Source: Chiloscyllium plagiosum (taxonomy: Eukaryota). From it: a DNA stretch of 64,000 nt. The translations under genes were made by a program, and so were the position numbers. This document shows, one piece after another, positions 9,704-54,640 of the stretch. Numbering within the stretch: the stretch's first letter is position 1; each line of letters begins with the position of its first letter. The notes beneath the pieces were generated by a model. The model did not search any database. It was not told the origin of the DNA and was given only the letters and a program-made list of their open reading frames with translations. The stretch is from positions 52,218,401 to 52,282,400 of the forward strand of contig NC_057728.1 in the NCBI RefSeq assembly GCF_004010195.1, given 5' to 3'.

Positions 9704-10050
9704 ACGATGTGGAGGTGCCAGTATTGGAGTGGGGTGGACAAAGTTAAAAATCGCACAACACCAGGTTATAATCCAACAGATTTACTTGGAAGCACTAGCT
9801 TTCTGAGCGTTGCTGCTTCATCTGGTGGTTGTAGACCATAAGACGCAATTTATAGCAAAAGACTACAGTGTCATACAACTGAAATGATATATTGAACAAA
9901 CAATATTGTTGTGTGATTTTTAACCCTGGAAGAAGATTCCTGAAGAAGGGCTTATGCCCGAAACGTCGATTCTCCTGCTCCTCGGATGCTACCTGGCCTG
10001 CTGTGTTTTTCCAGCACCACATTTTTCAATTCTGATTTTTAACCCTCTCC
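9704..10050. mobile_element. Penelope-like termini, family C with nested family A piece
   Basis: Recurrent gatgtggaggtgcc..gttaaaaatc..ccaggttata terminus (also 15772, 17646, 38665, 41371) plus a family A terminus at 9935-10035. Confidence 0.65.
9932..9975 (+). ncRNA. Minimal type I hammerhead ribozyme motif, Penelope family A (intact)
   Basis: CTGAAGA-A-GGGC(TTAT)GCCC-GAA-ACGT-C at 9940-9967; flanks agattc/gattct can form stem I with one mismatch. Confidence 0.7.
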
Positions 10051-18415: not shown

Positions 18416-18616
18416 TGCTGGTAGTGTCAGTCTGGATTTTCTGTCCATTCTGTGGATTGGAACCTGAATCTAAAAACTTCCAACTAAAAATGGCATGAAC
18501 TGAACTGTGTCTGATGCAATAAATGTTTGTTTTAATAGTCTGACCTGTGTATAATTCAATGATTGGTGAGGTTTTCTCCAACTTGCTGTCTTTTGAGACT
18601 ATCTATTATACACTAC

Positions 18617-18990
18617 GACCCACCCTCCCATCCTGGCACTTTCCCCTGCCACCGCAGGAACTGTAAAACCTGTGCCCACACCTCCTCCCTCACCTCCTTC
18701 CAAGGCCCTAAAGGAGCCTTCCACATCCAAAGTTTTACCTGCACATTCGCTAATATCATTTATTGTATCCGTTGCTCCCGATGCGGTCTCCTCTACATTG
18801 GGGAGACTGGACGCCTCCTAGCAGAGCGCTTTAGGGAACATCTCCGAGACACCCGCACCAATCAACCAAATCGCCCAGTGGCTCAACATTTCAACTCCCC
18901 CTCCCACTCTGCCGAGGATATGGAGGTGCTGGGCCTCCTCCACCTCGGATGCTGCCTGAATTGCTGTGCTCTTCCAGCACCACTGATCCA
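18617..18990 (+). mobile_element. Penelope-like element, GIY-YIG endonuclease fragment
   Basis: FPCHRRNCKTC..FTC...NIIYCIRCSRCGLLYIGETGRLLAERFREH: classic PLE GIY-YIG, joined to a family A terminus. Confidence 0.92.
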
Positions 18991-21249
18991 GTATCTATTA
19001 TACAGATTGAGTTTTCAAATAAGCAACTAACAATGTAATCTTACAATGCAGTGTTGAATATTCACTAACTTATGGACACCTTCACTTAAATTATCAATAT
19101 CAGTCCAATCAATGTTGTTGCTTTCTTATGACATTTCCTCATTTTGTGGCCTATTATGCTTTAATCTTGTTTCACTGACTCGCCTCTTTTCGGTACCAAA
19201 AATCCTCTTAGTTCTCTTGGCTTTGTTCCTCTAGCTAAAATTCAAACATCAGCACTTGATGTCTGAAAAATTAATTCAAATACATTTGCAAGGGATGTTG
19301 TAAGGTTAATTTTGAATGAGGCATTTTCATATTTGTTATGGTAATTTCCACAGCATTTGTCATTCTGTGTTGATGTAGGTTACACTTGGAGATTTTAATT
19401 ACTTTTGAGTTATGTGTAATTGTTGTGTGATTGGAATTTTGAATCACAGGCACTGACATTTCTGGGTTTGGAAAATACACACAACTTGCAAGCCATGACC
19501 AGGAATTTGACTTCCACCAAGCTCATTCCTGATGAAGGGCTTTTGCCCAAAATGTCGATTCACCTGCTTCTCTGAAGCTGCCTGACCTGCTGTGCTTTTC
19601 CAGCACCACATTCTCGACTCTAATCTCCAGCAATTGCAGTCCTCACTTTCACCTTGTTGACTGGCTCTTTAAGTTCAGAAAGAGGGGATCTCCTTGGACC
19701 TGTACTGGAATAGTAAATTCTGTAGTTTCCATTTATTGGTTTCTTTTGATGCAACACGTCATTTTCAAAATGTCTGTAGTTATGCCCAACTATTTGTACT
19801 TGAGCACAATTTTGTTCCGCTTAATTAAACCTAATGGAATCCCGGTGATGCGATGTTGGCCTGTATTGGTTACAGTAATTACACTTTATTCAACTCAGGT
19901 CACACTTACAGTATCTGGGTGATGGTTTTTCAAGAAATAACGTTGGTGTCTGAGTAAAAGTTGGATTATATAGAATTGCACTCTCTGACTGTAGCCCCTG
20001 GCCTGAGCTCTGGTGTTTCCTGAATTCTGCCTGAAATATTCTCACATCCTGTCAATTTGAATACCTTCTTATAATTCAAAACTACTGAATCTCATATATC
20101 AATCACTAGCTTACACTCATCATCTTTTTGTCCAAATTAAACAAATTCATTGTACACAATGTTCTGTAGCCTGGCTTTTGATCTTCTGCCTCCCTGACGT
20201 CATTTGCTTTTACTGTTGCAGCTGTTTACTTCTTGCATTATAGCCTTGTGGATTATGATACCTCTAAGGGGCATATCCAAGTACTTCTGATTTTAGTGAA
20301 GCATACACACCAGCATTCACTGATGATCTATGTAATCTAAAGTTATCAGTGCAGCTTTGGTAATACTAAGTAGTATGTCTTCGAACTGAAATAAATAAGA
20401 AAATTGATAACATTACTGTTGAAGGCTGCCTGCTTATCCCACGTTCCCTTGGAAATTTGGCTGCCTGTATGTTCTGGCCTTATTTTTCTTCAGTCATGGA
20501 ATGAGAGTGTCACCAGTTAGCTTCTAACTTGCATTTCCATTCCATACAACAATGTAGCATAGGTGTCACTGGCAAGGTCAGCATTGCAATGATCCCGAGT
20601 TAATTTTGAACTGATTGATTAGCATTTCAGAGGGCAGTTCAGGGTCAAGCACATTGCTGTGGAGTCAAATACAGATTTCCTCTCCTTTAAAGCAAAGGTA
20701 GATTTGTTGAACAGTAAAGAAAATAAGGGTTTTGGTGAGTGAGTGGATAGGTGGAGCTGAGTCTATAAGAAGATTCAGTTGTGATCTTGTTGAATGACAA
20801 GATCACAACTCGAGGGACCACATTTCCTACTTGTACTTCATATGTGTGAATCAAATAGATTTTTTATGATAGCAGACAATATTTACATGCCAAGTTATAT
20901 TGAATTCAAATTTCACCACCTGCTTTGATGAGATTTGAACCCATGTGTCCAGAACATTAGCCTGGGTTTTGGATTACTAGTCCAGTGATGTAACCACTAC
21001 ACACCACCTTATAGCCACAGTGTTTGTATAGCTGGTCCAGTTCAGTTTCTGGTCAATAGTAACTCCCAGAATTTTGATTTAAGATGTGTATGTGTGTGTC
21101 TGTGCATGCATGTGTGCCACTGCCTGACATGTGTGAGAAGAAAATGTGATTGCCATGTATTGGCCCAGGTGAGGACTTCTAATCTATCTGATAGCTGATT
21201 TGTTACATGAATAAACCAGGCTCACTTTAGTTTTCTTGAAATTGCTTTG

Positions 21250-23149: not shown

Positions 23150-24520
23150 ATAGACATAGGAGCAAAGTAGACTATTCAGCCAGACCTGACCTCTTGTCTT
23201 CCTTTTTTTTGTCATTTGTAAACTTGGTTATAGTCCATTGACTTCACTCCCCCAGGACATTAATATATATTATAAATAATTGTAACTTCGCACTGATCTC
23301 TTTGATTGTCCACTAGTTATTGATTGCCCACTAGTTATTGATTGCCATCCTGAAAATTCACCCCTTATCCAAACTGTGTCTTCTATTGGCTATCCAATCC
23401 TTTGTCCATGAATATACTGCCTCCAACACTATGAGCTGTTATCTTGTTAAGTAGCCTGAGGTGCGGCACCCTATCCAATACCTTCTGGAAATCCAAATAT
23501 ATTAAATCTATTGACTCTGCTTTATTTTTCTTATTACCCATCAAAGAATTCTAATAAATTTGCCAAGCATTACTTTCCCTTCATGAAGCCATTCTGAGTC
23601 TGCTTGATCATATTTTGCTTTTGTGAATACTCTGCTATTAATCCTTCATAATAGACTAACATTTTCCAATAGCAGATATTAACCTAACTGGCATTTAGTT
23701 ACCAGTCTTTTGTCTCTTTCCCTTTTTAAATAAAGGTGTTACATTAGTGTTCCAATCCTTCAATACTTTTCAATAATCTAATGATTTCTCTAAGATTGCT
23801 AACAATATATCTCTGTATACTTCTTCTGCTATTTTGGAACACTTTCCATCAAGTCCAGGTGACTTATTGGTCTTGAGCCCTATGTTTCTCAAGCACTCTT
23901 TCACTAGTGATCGCTATTGTATTTATTTTCTCTCCTCCTTTTGTCCTTTGATTATTTAGATATTTAAGAAAGCAATTCGTGTCTTCTACTGTGAAGACTG
24001 ACAGAACCCATTTATTTCAACTTCTCTGTCATTTCCTGGTTCCCCATTATAATTTAGTCAGCCCCATTCTCTAAGCAGCCATTACACTTTGACTTCTCTC
24101 TTCCTTTTTGTATATTTAAAGAAGCTCTTTCTGTATTGATATTTCTTGCATGTTTATCTTCACTTTATTTTCTCCCTCTTGTATTCTTGGTTGTCTAGTT
24201 TTTTGGTTTTTAAAACTTCTCCAGCCCTCTGGATTACCACCAATCTCTGCCACATTTTGTTTTTTCTTTCAACTTGATGCTGTCCTTAACTTCTCAGTTA
24301 ACTATGCTTAGCATACCGAAACGTCGATTCTCCTGTTCCCTAGATGCTGCCTGACCTGCTGCGCTTTTCCAGCAACACATTTCCATCTATGCTTAGCATA
24401 CCCCCTTCCTAGAGTACTTCTCCGTCACTATAATATATCTTTGTCTAAATCATTAACTATTTTCTTAAATATTTGCTCATGGATTCACAGCCATTTTTGC
24501 TGTTAGACCCCTTTTTCCAG
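23150..24520 (-). mobile_element. Old CR1 fragment with small family A insert (24316-24385)
   Basis: YLDFQK, KSPGLD remnants on the minus strand. Confidence 0.7.
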
Positions 24521-35345: not shown

Positions 35346-35954
35346 AATTAAAATGAACTAAAGTACATCACTACCTTAGTTGTGGCAGTGAGCTTCACTT
35401 TAATGCCTTGATCATGTTTTAGTTTGATGGTTTTGCTTTTATATTTCTTCTTGAAACCCACCTCTTTGATCAAGTTTATGATCACCTGTCCTATCTCATT
35501 GTTGCCTAGTTTAAAATTCCTGAAGAAGGGCTCATGCCCGAAACATCGATTCTCCTGCTCCTTGGATGCTGCCTGACCTGCTGCACTTTTCCAGCAACAC
35601 ATTTTCAGCTCTGATCTTCAGCATCTGCAGTCCTCACTTTTTCCTAGTTTAAAATTTCATCTGATATTGCACTTGAAGCACCTTAGAATGTTGCACTATG
35701 TCAAAGGCATTACATAAATTCAAGTTGTCCCCCAGAACATGATATTAATCTTTATATTTCTAAATGTGCATATACAGAAGCTTAAAATATTATTTTGAGA
35801 CAGTACTTGAGGAATTGAAGAGAACTTGGAAAAGAATTTTACATGAAAATGTTTTGACTTATGGAACATTAGTACTTTATTCCCAGTGATAGTTTAATAT
35901 AATTTCAACAACTATTTCTGTTTAGAATCATAATCTGTTTTCTCCCCAATTTAG

Positions 35955-36232
35955 AAAACGTAACACCTATCATTGAGGATGAAGACCGTGTCGAGGACAT
36001 TGAGATAAAGACACAAATGTCTGAAGATCTGATCTCTGCAGAGAGTGAAGAAGACATGCGAGATGATGTTGACCCAGTAATTGGCAAAGTACCATTTTGT
36101 GACGAGGTTGAGTTGAGTAGCATTTCCACAGCAGATGCTGAGAGCGATTTTGAAGTTGATGCAGATTTGCCAGAAACTCATGAACCCGTAGAGTTAAGAA
36201 GGCGCAATAAAATGAATGAGTTTGGGAAATAA
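35955..36232 (+). CDS. ccdc107: RIC3/CCDC107-family protein, terminal exon 6 (acidic tail)
   Basis: Polypyrimidine acceptor; acidic region ending ELRRRNKMNEFGK* (cf. RIC3 C-terminal LRKRN). The six exons sum to 879 nt = 292 aa + stop. Confidence 0.85.
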
Positions 36233-36670
36233 ATCGCTAATCATCCCTGTATATTCATATTTTATCCATTACCTGATTCACTTTGTTTATTGTGTGGTTT
36301 TATAGAAATATTATTTCCATGATACTTGTTACTATTTAAAACAGATTAAAATTGACATTGACCTAATATATTCAAAAGCATTGACACATCAGGAAATTGG
36401 TTTTAGTTAGTTAGGATTTACTTGTTCCATATAGTTATAATGACCTTGATTGTTTTTATATTAAAATCATTGTGAAATTAACATGGAGCATTGCATTATT
36501 TGGAATCTTGATCTATCTAAACTCATGTTAGTAAACTGAATGTTTGTTTAATTTGTGTGCATATAATTTTACTTTCTATCAAATACTGAACTCAACTCTG
36601 AAATGTTGTCATGCTTTTGTAAGTAAGAGTGTTGTTGTATTTAAGGATATACACATTTGTGTTTTTACAG

Positions 36671-36676
36671 AATAAA
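36671..36676 (+). terminator. Candidate polyadenylation signal of the RIC3/CCDC107-family gene
   Basis: AATAAA about 440 nt after the stop, ending an AT-rich, repeat-free putative 3'UTR. Other candidate signals exist nearer the stop. Confidence 0.45.
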
Positions 36677-37395
36677 TTACACCCAAATTTAATAAGGGAG
36701 GAAGAGTGCAAGAAAAAGACTACAAAATGTGTTCTTAGTGCTGATCTTTTAACCTGGTGAACTCAGTCTCAGCCTGCTGCCTTCCAGACAGAGCTCTGAC
36801 TTCACTTGCACTTGCTATCTAGCCTCACAGTCTACATCAAAAACTGCTGAAAGTATACCTGCAAAAAGAATGAATAGATTAATTATTTGAATTTGATTCT
36901 TCTTCAGAACAGGAGTCAAAATTTTAATTGTTAGGAGTTAACAGACCAGAATCTGCTCCTCAATTCAACAAGATCTCTTACTGAATCATTCACTTACTAA
37001 TCATTCACATCAACCTCACCTTCCTGAAATATCACCATATTTATTCCCCAACAATGCAACACATCTGTTGACCTATGTCTTGAATATACATCCCATTATC
37101 TAAAGAAAGATGTACTCGCATTGAAAACAGTCCAGAGAGCTGACATGGTTGATCCCAGGTATGAAGATCTTTTGAGGACAGGTGGAGTAGGTTGGGCTTA
37201 TACATATTGGAATTTAGGAGAATGAGGGGAGGCCTATTGAAATATAAGATTTTTAGGGGGCTTGACAGGGTAATTGTAGAAAGGTTGATTCCCCTTATAG
37301 GAGTAGAAAGTGAGGTCTGCAGATGCTGGAGATCAAAGTTGAAACTTTATTGCTGGAACAGCACAGCAGGTCAGGCAGCATCCAGGGAACAGGAG

Positions 37396-37431
37396 ATTCG
37401 ACGTTTCGGGCACAGGCCCTTCTTCAGGAAT
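37396..37431 (-). ncRNA. Minimal type I hammerhead ribozyme motif, family A, left arm of inverted element (intact)
   Basis: attc-CTGAAGA-A-GGGC(CTGT)GCCC-GAA-ACGT-C-gaat on the minus strand. Confidence 0.75.
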
Positions 37432-37592
37432 GAGCAGAGAGTGTTCAGCAGGAGAGAGGGAGGCAGAGAGCTTCTTCAAGGAAGGCATCCTTTTCTCCTC
37501 GAAGATTTCAACCTACTGCGAATCCTCTTACAAGAATGCCTTCCTTGAAGAAGCTCTCTGCCTCCCTCTCTCCTGCTGAACACTCTCTGCTC

Positions 37593-37628
37593 ATTCCTGA
37601 AGAAGGGCCTGTGCCCGAAACGTCGAAT
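37593..37628 (+). ncRNA. Minimal type I hammerhead ribozyme motif, family A, right arm of inverted element (intact)
   Basis: attc-CTGAAGA-A-GGGC(CTGT)GCCC-GAA-ACGT-C-gaat; perfect 4-bp stem I. Confidence 0.75.
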
Positions 37629-38756
37629 CTCCTGTTCCCTGGATGCTGCCTGACCTGCTGTGCTGTTCCAGCAATAAAGTTTCCCCTTATAGGAGTGCCT
37701 AGGACAAGAGGGCACAATCTCAGAGTAAGCGGTCACCCATTTAAAGCAAAGATGAGGATTTGTTTTAAAATCTGGATTTCTTCACTGCAGTGGGCTGTAG
37801 AGGGTGGGTTGTTAATTATATACAAAGCTGAGGTAGACACTATTAGTCAATAAGGATATCAAGGTTTATAGGGAGAAGGCTGGAAAATGGAGTTGAAGGT
37901 TATCGGATCAGCCATGATTACATTAAATAGAGGAGTAGCCTCGATGGACCAAATGGACTATTTCTGATCCAACATCTTAGGGTTATCAAATACTTGGGAG
38001 AGAATTCCTGCGAAGAGATTTCTCCTCAGTCTTACATTGCTGTTCCTGCACCTGCCTCTTGGTTGGTTGCCTGAACAGCATAAGTTAAAAATTACTCCTT
38101 TATTGTATTCTTTGAACAAATTTCTCATATCAGTCTTTTGCAATTTGGAGCCAAGAACAACTTACATTTTTATAATGCCTTTAACATTAATACCTGTAAA
38201 CTGATGACCACTTATATTTAAAAGGAAAAGGGCAGCAGATACATCAGAACACCAACACCACTTGCAAGTTCCTTTTCAAGCCCTCCACCATCCTGACTTG
38301 GAAATAAGAACTAGGAGCAGGAGGAGGCTGCCTGTCCCTTTGAGCCTGCTTCACTATCCAGTAAGATCATGGCTGATTTTTTTTCATGAACTCAGATCTA
38401 CTTACTCACGTTCTCACCATATACCTTAATTTCTTTATTGTTCAAAAAATCTTAGCTTTAAAAATTTTACTGAAGTAGCGTTAACTACTTCACTGGGCAA
38501 ACAATTCCATAGATTTACAACCCTCTGGGTGAAGAAGTTCCTTCTCAATTCAGTTCTAAATCTGTTCCCTATAATCTTGAGGCTATGCCCTCTTGTCCTA
38601 GTTTCACCTGCCAGTGGAAACATCTTCTCTCCTATCTTATCTATTCCCTTCTTAATTTTATAAGATTTGGAGATGCTGGTGTTGGACTTGGGTATACAAC
38701 ATTAAAAATCACACCAGGTTATTGTCCAACAGGTTCATTTGGAAGCACTAGCTTTT

Positions 38757-41370
38757 AGAACATAGAAAAGTACAGCACAGAAGAATAGGCCCTTTGGCCC
38801 ATGATGTTGTGCTGAGATTTAATCCTAATGTAAAATATAGTAACAAGCTACGCACCCCTCAACTCATTGCTATCCATGTGCATGTCCAGCAGTCTCTTAA
38901 ATGTCCCCAATTACTTTGCTTCCACCACCACAGCTGACAGCGCATTCCATACCCCTGACGTCTCCTTTGTACTTTCCTCCTAATATCTTCAAGCTATGAC
39001 TTCTCTTACCAGTCAATCCTGCCCTGGGGAAAAGTCTCTGGATATTGACTATTCCTCTCACTATTTTGTACGCCTCGATCAGGTCTCCTCTCTTCCTCCT
39101 CTCCAGAGAGAAAAGTCTGAGCTTATTCAACATTTCTTCATAAGGCAAGCCCTCCAATCCAGGCAGCATCCTGGTAAACCTTCTTTGCACCCTCTCTAAA
39201 GCCTCTTGTATCTTTCCTATAGTGGGGCGACCAGAACTGGACACAATATTCAAAGTGTGGTCTCACCAGGGACTTGTAGAGCTGCAGCAAAACCTTGCAG
39301 CTGTTAAATTCGATCCCCCTGTTAATGAAAGCCAAAACACCATGTGCTTTCTTACCAACCCTATCCACTTGGGTGGCAACTTTGAGGGATCTATGTACTT
39401 GCACACCCAGATCCCTCTGTTCCTCCACACTGCCAAGAATCCTGTCTTTAATCCTATTTTCAGCATTCGAGATCGACCTTCCAAAATGCACCACTTCGCA
39501 TTTATCCAGGTTGAACTCCATCTGCCATTTCTCAGCCCAGCTCTGCATCCTGTCTATGTCACGCTGCAACCTGCAGTAGTACTCTATACTATCAACGACA
39601 CCTCCAATCTTTGTGTCATCTGCAAATTTACTAACCCACCCCTCAACCTCCTCAGTCAAGTCATTTATAAAAACTACAAAGAGTAGAGGCCCACGAACAG
39701 TGCCCTGTGGGACCCCACTCAACACTGACCTCCAGGCAAAATACTTCCCATCTACAACCACTCTCTGCCTTCTGTCAGCCAGCCAGCCAATTCTGAATCC
39801 AGATAGCCAAATCTCTCTGTATCCCATACTTCCTGACTTTATGAATGAGCCTACATGGGGAACCCTATCAAATGCCTTGCTGAAGTCCATATGCACCACA
39901 TCCACTGCTCGACTGTCGTTGACCTGTCTTGACACCTCCTCAAAGAACTCAATAAGATTTGTGAAGCATGACCTGCCCCTCACAAAGCCATGCTGACTGC
40001 CTTTAATCACACTATGCTTTGCCAAATAGTCATAAATTCTATCCCTCAGAATTCTTTCCAAAACTCTGCTGACCACAGACGTAAGACTGACTGGTCTGTA
40101 ATTGCCAGGGATTTCCCTATTACCTTTCTTGAAAAGAGGAACAACATTCGCCTCCTTCCAATCCTCTGGTACGACTCCTGTGGAGAGTGAGGAGGCAAAT
40201 ATCCTTGCCAGCGGCTTAGCAACCTCCTTTCTCGCTTCACGGAGCAGCCTAGGATAAATCTGGTCTGGCCCTGGGGACTTATCAATCTTAATGTTTCCAA
40301 AATTTGTAGCACATCAATTTCATCAATCTTGATCTGGTCAAGACTGTATCCCAGCTTCTCTAAGTTTTCATTTACAACAATTTCCCTTTCCTTGGTGAAA
40401 ATCGAAGCGAAAAACTCATTTAGGACTTCCCCTATCTGCTCAGACTCCACACACAAGATCCCTACGCTATCCCTGATTGGCCCTACCTTCTCCCTGATCA
40501 TTCTCTTATTCCTCACATATGAGTAAAATGTCTTTGAGTTCTCCTTAATCCTTCTTGACAAGCCTTTTTCGTGCCCCATCCTGGCTCTCCTCAGTCCAGT
40601 TTTGAGCTCCTTTCTAGCTAGCCTGTAATCCTCTAAAGCTGTGCTAGATCCTTGCTTCCTCCACCTTACATAAGCTGCCTTCTTCCTTTTGACGAGAAGT
40701 TCCTCTGTTCTCATCATCCAAGGTTCCTTAACTTACCCGTTCTTACCTGTCTCAGAGGAACAAATTTGTGCATCACTTGCAACAACTGTTTCTTAGTCTC
40801 CATATGTCTGCTGTGCCCTTTCTGTGGAACAATTGCTCCCAGTCTGTACTTCCCAAGTCCTGTCTGATAGCGTCATAATTTCCTTTTCCTCAATTAAATA
40901 TCTTCTGTCAGTAACTGCTCCTTTCACTCTCCAAGTCTATGCTAAATGTGAGGCAGTTGTGATCACTTTCACCAAGGTGCTCTCCCACCGCGAGATCTGA
41001 CATCTGTCCTGGCTCGTTGCAGAGCACCAAATCCAAAATGGCCTCTCCCCTTGTTGGTCTGTCTACATACTGAGTAAGGAAACCCTCCTGAACAATCTGA
41101 CAAAAACGGCTCCATCCAAACCATCTGCACTTAGGAGGTTCCAGTCGATATTGGGAAAGTTGAAATCACAGTTGAAACTTTAACAACAACCCTGCTACTT
41201 TTGCATTTTTCCGGAATCTGCTCGCCTATGAGATCTTCAATCTCTCTACTGCTATTAGGTGGTTTGTAGAAAACCCCCAAGGTGATGGCTGTTCCCTTGC
41301 TGTTCCTAACTTCCACCCATACTTCCTCAACAACCTTCGTTTCTGTAGCTGTGATACACTCTCTGATTAG
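38757..41370 (-). mobile_element. Relatively young CR1 LINE ORF2 (frameshifted)
   Basis: 312-aa RT ORF 39138-40076 (SQHGFVRGRSC, DFSKAFD, SGVPQG, KFADDTK); EN remnant near 41300. Confidence 0.92.
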
Positions 41371-41407: not shown

Positions 41408-41781
41408 TCCACATAAACCTGTTGGACTATAACCTGGTGTTGTGTGATTTTTAACTTAATTTTATATGCTTTGATAAGATTCCCACTCATTCTTCTGAAT
41501 TCCAATGAATATAATCCCAGTCTACTCAGTCTCTCTTCATTAGCCAACCCCTTCAACTCCGGAATCAACCTAGTGAGCCTCCTCTGCACTCCCTCCAGTG
41601 CCAGTACATCCTTTCTCAAGTATGTACATAGTACTCCAGGTGTGGCCTCACCAGCATTCTGTACAGCTGCAACATAACCTTCCTGCTTTTAAACTCAATC
41701 CCTTTAGCAATGAAGGGCAAAATTCCATTGCTTTGCTAATTACTTGTTGTACCTGCAGACCAACCTTTTGTGATTCATGCT

Positions 41782-42505
41782 GAAAATGTGTTGCTGGAAA
41801 AGCGGAGCAGGTCAGGCAGCATCCAAGGAGCAGGAGAATCGACTTTCCGCCACTTCCAAACGGACCCCACCACCAGGGATATATTTCCCTCCCCTCCCCT
41901 ATCAGCGTTTCAAAAAAACCACTCCCTCCATGACTCCCTTGTCAGGTCCACACCCCCCACCAACCCAACCTCCACTCCCGGCACCTTTCCCTGCAACCGC
42001 AAGAAATGCAAAACTTGCACCCACACCTCCCCCCTTACTTCCCTCCAAGGCCCCAAGGACCATAGCAACATGACGGCTGGAGGAAGAGTGCCTCATCTTC
42101 GGCCTAGGAACCCTCCAACCACAAGGGATGAACTCAGATTTCTCCAGTTTCCTCATTTCCCCTCTCCCCACCTTGTCTCAGTCCCAACTCTCGAACTCAG
42201 CACCACCTCCCTAACCTGCAATCTTTTTCCTGACCTCTCCGCCTCCACCCCCACTCCGGCCTATCACCCTCACCTTAACCTCCTTCCACCTATCGCACTT
42301 CCAAAACGCCTCCCCCAAGTCCCTCCTCCCTACCTTTTATCTTAGCCTGCTTGGCACACCCTCCTATTCCTGAAGAAGGGCTCATGCCCGAAAAGTCGAT
42401 TCTTCTGCTCCTTGGATGCTGCCTGACCTGCTGCGTTTTTCCAGCAACACATTTTCAGCTCTGATCTCCAGCAGCTGCAGTCTTCACTTTCTCTTAGAAG
42501 ATTTC
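41782..42505 (+). mobile_element. Penelope-like element (family A) with inverted 5' terminus
   Basis: SLHDSLVRS..GTFPCNRKKCKTC coding remnant; terminus with hammerhead-like motif at 42370; TGTGATTCATGCT duplicated at both sides. Confidence 0.85.
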
Positions 42506-44659
42506 TGTGATTCATGCTCAAGGACATCCAAATCCCTCTGCATAGCAACATGCTGCAACTTTTTACCATTCAAATAATAATCATTTTCACTGTTACTCCT
42601 ACCAAAATGGATGCCTTCACATTTATTAACATTGTATTCCATCTGCCAGATCTTTGCCTATTCACTCAAAGTATCTATGTTCCTCTGGAAAGTTTCACAG
42701 TCCTCTGCACACTTTGCTCTGCCACTCATCTCAGTATCATCCGCAAACTTTGACACACTACACGTGGTCTCAACTCCAAATCACCTATATAAATTATGAA
42801 TAATTGTGGTCTCAACACCGATCCCTGAGGCACATCACTCGTCACTGATTGCCAGCCCGAAAGCACTCATTTATTCCCACCTTTTGCTTCCTGTTAGTCA
42901 ACCAATGCTCTATCGATGCTAATACTTTACTCGTAATGCCATGCATGACCTGCCCTTCATGAACCCATGCTGCATCGGCCCAATGGGACAATTTTTATAG
43001 AGATGCCTTGTTATTTCTTCCTTGATAATAGATTCAAGCATCTTCCCCATAGAAGTTAAGCTATAATTATAATTAAGTTATAATTATAATTAAGCTATGA
43101 TTAAGTTATAATTCCCCATCTTTTGTCTACCTCCATTTTTAAACAGTGGTGTCACATTTGTTTTCTAATCTGCTGGGACTGCCCCAGAATGCAGCAAATT
43201 TTGGAAAATTACTACCAGTGTACATACTATTTCTCCCGCCATATCTTTTAGTACCTTGGGATGCATTCCATCAGGGTCAGGAGACTTGTCTCTCCTTAGC
43301 TCCATTAGCTTGCCCAACACTACCTCTTTCATAATAATGATTGTTTCCAGATCCTCACCTACCTTCATGTCTTTGTCAATTATTGGCAGGTTATTAGTGT
43401 CCTCTACTGTGAAGTCTGACACAAAATACCTATTCAGTGCCTTGGCCATTTCAGCATATCCCATAACTAAATGCCCCTTCTCCTCCTCTAAAGAACCAAT
43501 ATTTACTTTAGCCACTCTTTTTCATTTTATATATTTATGGATTTATAAATATACCAACATTCCTTCAGTGTGACTGGGTCAAAGTCCTGGCACTCTCTCC
43601 CCAATGGCATTGTGAGTGTACCTACACCACATGGATTGGTGTTAGAAGTCAGCTCACCACCACAACCTCAAGGGCAAGTAGGAATGGACAATAAATGCTG
43701 GCCTAGTCAGTGATAAATGCCATGAATGAATTTAAAAAAACATTGCAGGAACACTATCAAATAAACTTAACACTGGAAACACAAGCATATATTTGGACAT
43801 GTGGTCAAAAGTTAAATCATTTTTAAGGAACTTATTGAAGCTGTAGAGATTCAAAAAGACGTTGGGAAGGAAATTCTAACACTTAAAGGCCAGGCAGCTG
43901 AAAGTAGAGTTGCCATTCATTATGTGATTATGGATCATGCAAGAAGCCAGAACTGGACAATTGCAGATGTCTTTTGTAGAAGAGCTCTTATAGCGGTGGT
44001 GTCCTTACATCTAAGTCCCACATGCTCCACAGGTGTACAAAATTAATGTATTGATTGATTAAAAATATCTAGAAACTTTGTAGGGCTGGAGGAGGTTAAC
44101 AGAGACAGAGGACGACCATGGAGGGATTTAATAATAAAGACGAATATTGCTGGACTGGGGATTACATGCTCCAACTCATGTTTCTCTCTCTTGTCTAACT
44201 AGTTTGCTCTTTATGTAATTTACAGGATTAATTTCTGCATCAACTATGCATTAAGCAAAGATTGGACACTGGAACAGCAAATCTAACACAACTGATTATG
44301 AATGTTGCTGACAAAAGATATATTTAGTTAAAACCTTGTCTTTCACTCATGTGGACAATTCACAAGAAATACCAATATAAAAGGAAAATAGTATTTGATA
44401 CTGTATCACAGAATTGATATGGTACAGAAGGTAGCCATTATGTCTATCATATCGATAATGGCTTTCTGACCATTAGTGCCAATCACATATTTTTCCCCGT
44501 ACCCTCCATGCTTTTTCTGTTTAAGTAACTACTCAATGACTTCTTGAATGCTTCAATTGAACCTGCCTCCACTTCATGACAGTGCATTCGAAACTCAAAT
44601 AATTTATTGCAAGGTTTTCTCAACTCACCATTTCTTCTGATGAAAATATTTTAAAAGTA

Positions 44660-53590: not shown

Positions 53591-54640
53591 GACGGATGCA
53601 TGGCAGATGCAGTTTAATGTGGATAAATGTGTGGTTATCCACTTTGGTGGCAAGAACAGGAAGGCAGATTACTACCTAAATGGAGTCAAGTTAGGTAAAG
53701 GGGCAGTACAACGAGATCGGCCCAACAAGACCACACCGACCTTCCGAAGAGTAACCCACCCCCGACTTATACACCTCACACTATGGACAATTTAGCATGG
53801 CCAATTGACCTGACCTGCACATTTTTGGAATGTGGGAGGAAACCGGAGCAGCCGGAGGAAACCCACGCAGACACAGGGAGAATGTGCATACTCCACACAG
53901 ACAGTCACCCGAGGCTGGAATCGAACTTGGGACTCTGGTACTGTGAGGCAGCAGTGCTAACCACTGAGCCACTATGCCGCCCCAACAATGAAGAAAGCTA
54001 ATAGCATGCTGGCCTTCATAACAAGAGGAATTGAGTAGAGAAGCAAAGAGTTCTTTCTGCAGCTGTACAGGGCCCTGGTGAGACTGCGCCTGGAGTATTG
54101 TGTGCAGTTTTGGTCTCCAAATTTGAGGAAAGACATTCTGGCTATTGATGGAGTGCAGCGTACATTCATGAGGTCAGTTCCCGGAATGGCGGGACTATCA
54201 TATGCTGAAAGTTTGGAGCGACTGGGTTTGTATATGCTTGAGTTTAGAAGGCTGAGAGAGGATCTGATTGAGATGTATAAGATTATTAAAGGATTGGACA
54301 CTCTGGAGGCAAGAAGCATGTTTCTGCTGATGGGTGAGTCCCGATCCAGAGGACACAGTTTAAAAATAAGGGGTAGGCCACTTAGAACAGAGTTGAGGAG
54401 AAACTTCTTCACCCAGAGAGTGGTGGGTGTATGGAATACTCTACCCCAGAAGGCTGTGGAGGCCAAGTCTCTGGAAACTTTCAAGAAAGAGTTGGATAGA
54501 GCTCTTAAGGATAGTGGAATCAAAGGTTATGGGCAGGAACAGGATACTGATTGAGGATGATCAGCCATGATCATAATGAATGGTGGTGCTGGCTTGAAGG
54601 ACAGAATGGCCTACTCCTGCACCTATTGTCTATTGTCCAT
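53591..54640 (+). mobile_element. CR1 3' fragment containing a minus-strand V-SINE (about 53718-53982)
   Basis: 158-aa CR1 C-terminal ORF 54078-54554; V-SINE with A/B boxes. Confidence 0.88.

Follow-up and report, generated by a model that had tools for sequence, protein, structure and literature searches.

The 376-bp insert analysed here is almost certainly a non-autonomous, internally deleted Penelope-like element (PLE) in the known layout of EN+ PLEs. It lies in a 64,000-nucleotide stretch of Chiloscyllium plagiosum DNA (referred to below as the window; contig NC_057728.1, positions 52,218,401 to 52,282,400). The insert is real and of a kind already described, the EN+ PLE layout having been published. 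The best overall explanation, which we consider likely, is the single insertion of an internally deleted PLE with RT/GIY-YIG functions acting in trans, with both 3' ends of the target primed and the products joined head to head. The features discussed are as follows, in window coordinates.

35956..36692, + strand: last exon and 3' UTR of a RIC3-family gene (exon by eye; AATAAA at 36671; RNA end near 36692)
37165..37790, limits approximate, + strand: old LINE fragment hosting the insert; the empty-site frame is open across the TSD
37289..37304, + strand: left TSD, 16 bp, exact direct repeat of 37681-37696; the empty site is an open LINE-like frame
37305..37340, - strand: Penelope 'tail', 36 nt, left arm only; family sequence in window copies, with no counterpart in the right arm
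37341..37492, - strand: left (inverted) arm of 152 bp, differing from the right arm at one position (151/152)
37396..37431, - strand: minimal hammerhead of the left arm, predicted cut after 37400
37455, - strand: junction of the internal deletion as found in the left arm, mirrored at 37569 in the right arm; loose contig ends on both sides
37492..37531, + strand: spacer, made up of the tail's last 5 nt and parent-element sequence 3' of the tail
37532..37683, + strand: right (direct) arm, tail-less, the final 3 nt common to the TSD
37536..37568, + strand: probable start of the parent PLE's ORF (11 codons), with a mirror copy in the left arm
37593..37628, + strand: minimal hammerhead of the right arm, predicted cut after 37624
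37681..37696, + strand: right TSD, 16 bp, exact direct repeat

The first-pass annotation described a 376-bp insert with a perfect 16-bp TSD. Sequence comparison agrees, placing the insert at 37305-37680 between two exact TSD copies (37289-37304 and 37681-37696). The annotation also described arms of about 148 bp, identical around a 47-nt spacer. A core of exactly this kind is present (37341-37488 and 37536-37683 are exact reverse complements with 47 nt between, and 3 of the 148 positions lie inside the right TSD), but on alignment the homologous arms extend inward to 152 bp, with one mismatch (37489/37535) and a spacer of 39 nt. The extension is real homology, since family reads that run past 37492 continue as the reverse complement of the spacer. 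The alignment of the arms that had been suggested as a check thus gives 151/152. The loose end of an X7 contig before 37492 is tail sequence, and the same continuity is found in the window copy at 42488-42505.

The arms are arranged head to head with the hammerheads facing outward. To call the whole a two-arm palindrome is correct for the inverted arms, but not for the left end, where the 36-nt tail at 37305-37340 is absent on the right. In a MITE or fold-back DNA transposon, the inverted repeats reach both ends. This reading was considered and rejected because the tail is one-sided, leaving 36 nt of the left end without a partner; the arms are moreover retroelement sequence.

When the insert and one TSD copy are removed, the empty site reads as a single open LINE-like frame, which supports a true insertion and not a chance arrangement. 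The LINE at the insertion site, which we take to be CR1-like, resembles by eye the ORF at 54039-54554, and its left part has three other matches in the window at 73-76%. The end of the left TSD (37300-37304) matches three of the four family bases 3' of the tail, a possible imperfect priming homology. A contig of run X1 matches 37243-37327 with 0 differences and so reaches 23 nt into the element, at a depth of 11.7 against 12.6 on the flank; its overlap falls short of the 31 letters required for bridging, and the assembly itself may have been built from X1. The contig shows no break at the TSD end, which would fit with there being no empty allele in the X1 sample, bearing in mind that contigs drop variants.

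The left arm, used as a query, finds 22 family matches in the 64-kb window, 20 of them outside the insert, with identities of 77-91%. There are four further head-to-head pairs (16166/16277, 32055/32119, 41781/42346 and 50201/50337), and a clear TSD of 13-14 or 16 bp was found at 4 of the 11 other copies tested. Family ends adjoin a GIY-YIG frame at 18563-19030 (PF01541), whose best match is a predicted RT/EN protein of Chiloscyllium punctatum (90%), and protein searches identify the family homologues as RT + GIY-YIG proteins. A CX4CxxC linker is present in this frame and in that at 41740-42345, both of which are relatives of the insert and not the insert itself. According to PMC8557442, a CX2-5CxxC linker before the GIY-YIG domain is the mark of Neptune/Nematis PLEs. 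Judging by the linker in these two window relatives, the parent element appears to be of this type. The 376 bp of the insert contain no single ORF with RT and EN, the coding sequence being limited to about 11 codons of a probable ORF start. Among the 25 + 94 protein matches there was no full-length shark PLE ORF with its N-terminus, and a literature search, with subscription journals, Repbase/Dfam and supplements outside its scope, found no description of the shark family.

Several of the neighbouring elements are worth recording. An older PLE insertion at 41769-42518 has a 13-bp TSD and a tail-less inverted arm; its body retains the CX4CxxC linker but has lost the GIY-YIG core, and its direct end extends 13 nt beyond the tail. 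The GIY-YIG fragment at 18563-19030 lies within the RIC3-family gene and adjoins, at 18947, a piece of pLTR. Three solo family stubs (9914-10046, 24302-24402 and 35505-35656) have TSDs of 14-16 bp; two of them stop at the tail-less site and the third at the tail end, so that both classes of end seen in the insert are represented. An uninterrupted LINE reverse-transcriptase frame of 391 aa lies 1.4 kb to the right of the insert (39138-40313, - strand; PF00078, E 7.8e-29). A frame at 3857-4324 matches PF09004 (E 6.3e-6) and is presumably a LINE-derived fragment.

The two arms share one internal deletion junction. Family contigs diverge from the insert at 37455, with loose ends on both sides in runs X1 and X7 and on one side each in X5 and X21. 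Beyond this point, contigs that match the hammerhead side run on into a pyrimidine-rich 3' region resembling window positions 42322-42345, and those that match the inner side into other sequence. The peptide that begins with the ATG at 37536 was compared with PLE ORF N-termini, and its two copies took ranks 1 and 2 of the 1439 ATG-start 11-mers in the window. For this comparison, which was devised after the peptide had been seen, 16 long PLE ORFs were selected that carry a given motif at a set distance from their start. As the ORF start is joined to the 3' end in both arms, nearly the whole ORF has been lost by internal deletion. Neither arm can have been wholly copied from the other, because the tail is found on the left only and the spacer on the right only; the template was therefore probably already deleted. 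We infer that a deleted master element would have existed. No second copy with the same deletion junction occurs in the 64-kb window or among the 24 contig pieces listed (48680 others being unlisted).

The tail's final 5 nt open the right part and also close the left arm, so that left arm and right part become colinear as a tandem when the left arm is turned round. Carried out in silico, this gives a direct tandem of 372 nt with a period of 223 and 1 mismatch in 149, which contains two same-sense hammerheads and has the 5-nt overlap at the turning point. Applied to the four other pairs in the window, the same operation gave no colinear arrangement by eye.

On the basis of these observations, we propose the following mechanism. 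The deleted element would be mobilised in trans by the family's RT/GIY-YIG protein. Its template RNA would be built on a 223-nt unit consisting of post-tail sequence, the first 11 codons, the deletion junction, the 3' region, the minimal hammerhead and the tail. The element protein would make one nick in each target strand, at a distance of 16 bp from each other, and reverse transcription would be primed by both 3' ends, at the tail-less start site in one case (giving the right arm) and at the tail end in the other (giving the left arm). The two cDNAs would then be joined head to head and filled in, to leave the TSD, the outward-facing arms and the one-sided tail. On balance, we favour priming from two nicks. 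A purified Anolis PLE protein is reported to cleave and extend both target strands, with two start sites for reverse transcription that delimit the tail (PMC11167929). The Anolis protein is of the Poseidon type and starts without target homology, whereas the insert has 3 nt in common with the TSD at its right end. The central junction has a microhomology of 1 nt only.

If one tandem RNA served both primers, the process would be L1-type twin priming, of which the 5-nt overlap is a prediction. In this version the upstream unit's tail end, at which the first cDNA had stopped, would be the priming site for the second nick. Against it, we estimate the chance of a stop within 5 nt of the tail end at about 1 in 20 per 223-nt unit, and the arms are accounted for equally well by two separate RNAs. 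Since none of the other four pairs is colinear, the single-RNA version is not the rule in this family. One tandem RNA, in preference to two, is accordingly a possibility that we rate as somewhat unlikely. More speculative, and rather doubtful, is the suggestion that deletion of the ORF could have made a tandem 223-nt mini-Penelope master, that its multimeric RNA would let same-sense hammerheads pair in cis, and that the insert would be a twin-primed copy of it. Published accounts favour self-priming or endonuclease resolution (PMC3846280, PMC8557442), and our literature search, which had subscription journals, Repbase/Dfam and supplements outside its scope, found no twin priming described for PLEs.

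The insert as found matters little, its layout being published and its position being outside the neighbouring mRNA. Its interest is as a clean specimen, given that the origin of the inverted arms and one-sided tail of PLEs is still called undefined in the literature that we consulted; the shared junction and the tandem reading together give a specific prediction, testable genome-wide. If true, a master and its twin-primed copy would capture the transition from PLE to retrozyme, and some PLE palindromes would be inverted tandems made as in L1.

The arms of the insert (151/152) are more alike than those of the other inverted pairs in the window (67/71, 70/74, 46/54 and 33/41). With its TSD also intact, it is the youngest-looking of the five and would appear to be relatively recent, its youth being relative only. 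For the epaulette shark, a mutation rate of 7e-10 per base per generation is given (PMC10587355); at this rate a single difference across 152 bp corresponds to roughly 0.12-26 million generations, a wide interval calculated with a rate from another shark. The insert could be younger still if the single difference arose during copying. The insert had been presented as 'very young' and as a sign of recent Penelope activity. Its Penelope-like origin, its true insertion with a TSD and its place as the youngest-looking pair all stand; in absolute terms it may or may not be very young.

Both arms carry a minimal hammerhead motif, in which stems I and II are 4 bp each, the core is CUGAAGA followed by one extra A, and GAA-ACGU-C comes last, with no loop 3. 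All the marks of a min-HHR are thus found: the core letters, the short stem I, the extra base after A9, the palindromic 15.2-16.2 and the missing loop 3. Because ACGU is palindromic and there is no loop, stem III can form only between two copies, and a motif without loop 3 therefore needs a second copy of the same sense. Each strand has one sense motif. The description of an 'intact' ribozyme with a 4-bp stem I in each arm is therefore accurate for the core letters and stem I, and inaccurate for a monomeric fold. The 3' strand of stem I is GAAU at 37597, which pairs perfectly over 4 bp, and GAUU at 9940 and 35520, with one mismatch. Rfam gave 0 hits at the gathering score in the whole window, and no hammerhead family among the 17 matches at E<=5 in 37200-37800; the microRNA matches in this region are all below the gathering score and reflect the hairpin. 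By calculated folding energy, the hairpin formed by either strand lies at about -332 kcal/mol; about 68 kcal/mol would have to be spent on opening it before stems I and II could form. In the turned-round tandem, the double-hammerhead fold is 8.7 kcal/mol above the minimum, a difference that argues neither way.

The insert had been placed about 630 bp past the candidate poly(A) signal of a RIC3-family gene. The measured distance from the AATAAA at 36671 to the TSD is 618 bp, and the family is confirmed by PF15361 (RIC3) matches on two exon-bearing upstream frames (E 7.7e-14 and 3.8e-5). Run X21 is a poly(A) single-cell run, of which 2% was sampled. Its depth is 11-29 on the 3' UTR of the gene and below 0.3 at the junction bin, with 0 in all ten bins of 36728-37247, and no read-through from the gene was seen in it. 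An X5 contig ends at 36692. Together, the X21 depth and the end of the X5 contig indicate that the mRNA ends about 600 bp upstream of the insert. A contig of X7, a run of uncertain type, reaches 37129, past the poly(A) site. X5 and X7 were used as other individuals for a presence/absence comparison, but both resemble RNA runs (about 295 for the UTR contig and 3-16 for the X5 flanks), and among their listed pieces none crosses the insert junction (4 of 24 runs used, left half of the locus). Within the 3' UTR, 8 of 20 RNA reads have G>T at 36442, probably an allele.

The X21 reads on the arms have no pile-up of read ends, and their substitution spectrum is like that of the DNA runs. Most (934/1007) fit only partly, mostly coming from other loci, and the summed read depth on the arm, about five orders above the flank, is not a copy number. 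At 37333, T>C (A>G on the element's sense strand) is present in 159/283 X21 reads of one direction and in about 0.2% of DNA depth. As the reads come mostly from other loci, this is not taken as editing at the locus. It is probably due to one expressed copy elsewhere, with editing of family RNA as an alternative. We infer that the hammerheads at this locus are passengers and presumably inactive, lacking loop 3, masked by the other arm and lying outside the neighbouring mRNA.

The strongest competitor to two-nick priming uses the same element, in which the cDNA would copy itself by folding back (or an antisense RNA would prime itself), and an endonuclease would resolve the inverted intermediate and trim one tail at integration. 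Fold-back has been suggested for PLEs because of the palindromes found at their inverted junctions (PMC3846280) and endonuclease resolution has been proposed for the tail (PMC8557442); a single template would also explain the near-identity of the arms. We nevertheless consider it unlikely, as the insert has no junction palindrome, its spacer being 39 nt long and asymmetric and its microhomology 1 nt, and as a tail-less target-primed cDNA cannot supply a tail by self-copying, while the two start sites of reverse transcription seen in vitro do account for the tail (PMC11167929). A further option dispenses with the deleted master. A longer inverted insertion would have collapsed locally, with arm conversion or template switching spreading one deletion to both arms, and the locus would be older than it appears. 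Repair between inverted arms is established. Microhomology-mediated deletions are described as common in PLEs (PMC3846280), and the lack of a sister copy of the deleted unit in the window or among the 24 contig pieces listed would be expected. This scheme is, however, highly unlikely: it requires two further events, the TSD copies, which are beyond the reach of arm conversion, are 16/16 identical, and the tail and spacer match the family.

The remaining explanations concern function and assembly. The first-pass annotation suggested that a transcript with one ribozyme could alternatively fold into a hairpin that is a substrate for ADAR or Dicer and masks it, and that the DNA could extrude a cruciform. 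As weighed here, the switch would affect the transcript of the RIC3-family gene. Either strand does fold into the very stable hairpin, and the X7 contig does pass the poly(A) site. Nascent read-through past a poly(A) site would cross the insert, and is invisible in a poly(A) library. On the other side are the sampled X21 reads (2% of the run), with zero depth in the ten bins before the insert, no pile-up of ends and a DNA-like spectrum. In addition, the outward-facing arms mean that a transcript from either flank makes the complement first, which together with the one sense motif per strand and the cost of about 68 kcal/mol makes a switch unlikely; and the minimal type is reported as inactive in single copy (PMC4209133). 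The switch is thus not upheld. Cruciform extrusion is possible in principle, but in yeast breaks were reported to be down 80% already at a 9-bp spacer (PMC8053094), and the spacer here is 39 nt. We give the switch and the cruciform site together very little credence. Least credible of all is an assembly artefact, from a fold-back read or a collapsed repeat. No listed contig piece spans the insert, and the reads cover the left half of the locus. Such an error would not, however, yield a 16-bp TSD whose removal restores an open frame, nor the tail asymmetry of the family, and the X1 contig crosses the left boundary without differences and at flank-like depth. Insertion of a deleted PLE primed at both target strands is therefore retained as the preferred reading.

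EN+ PLEs are described as usually having a 5'-truncated copy next to them in inverted orientation and a tail of 30-40 bp on one side only (Craig et al. 2021, PMC8557442), and the one-sided tail of 30-40 bp appears also in PMC11167929. TSD-flanked examples, some of them internally deleted, are given by Arkhipova et al. 2013 (PMC3846280). The insert resembles these in its head-to-head inverted 5'-truncated copy, one-sided tail, TSD, pLTR hammerhead and internal deletion. It differs from the insertions described there in having no RT or EN coding sequence and in having one deletion junction common to both arms, and its TSD is 16 bp, compared with 8-10 bp in the rotifer examples (PMC3846280, PMC8557442).

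The hammerheads agree with the min-HHR of metazoan PLEs as described by Cervera and De la Pena 2014 (PMC4209133) in the 4-bp stem I, the extra base 9/10.1, G10.1-C11.1, the palindromic 15.2-16.2 and the lack of loop 3. The same source reports dual motifs on opposite strands 100-700 bp apart, a spacing like that of the insert. Stem II is 4 bp in the shark motif and 7-8 bp in the schistosome families. A single schistosome min-HHR is reported to give no cleavage, and dimers low cleavage (PMC4209133).

A non-coding, PLE-derived, hammerhead-bearing unit also recalls the non-LTR retrozymes (Cervera and De la Pena 2020, PMC7229834; Li, Clavereau and Pollet 2026, bioRxiv 10.64898/2026.07.22.740005), and the putative 223-nt unit falls within the monomer range of 150-450 given for them. 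Unlike these, the insert is inverted and not tandem in the genome, its hammerhead is minimal and not canonical, and its unit would be a product of ORF deletion that keeps the ORF start; there are no tandem same-sense hammerhead units at the locus, the tandem appearing only after the left arm is turned round in silico. Finally, L1 twin priming (Kojima 2010, PMC2912911) gives, as here, an inverted and a direct segment between TSDs. In template coordinates, the inverted segment's outer end there abuts the inner end of the direct one; in this one insert the two ends would likewise meet, with a 5-nt overlap. In contrast to the L1 cases described there, the insert has no poly(A) and its segments repeat the same sequence, so that a tandem template would be needed.
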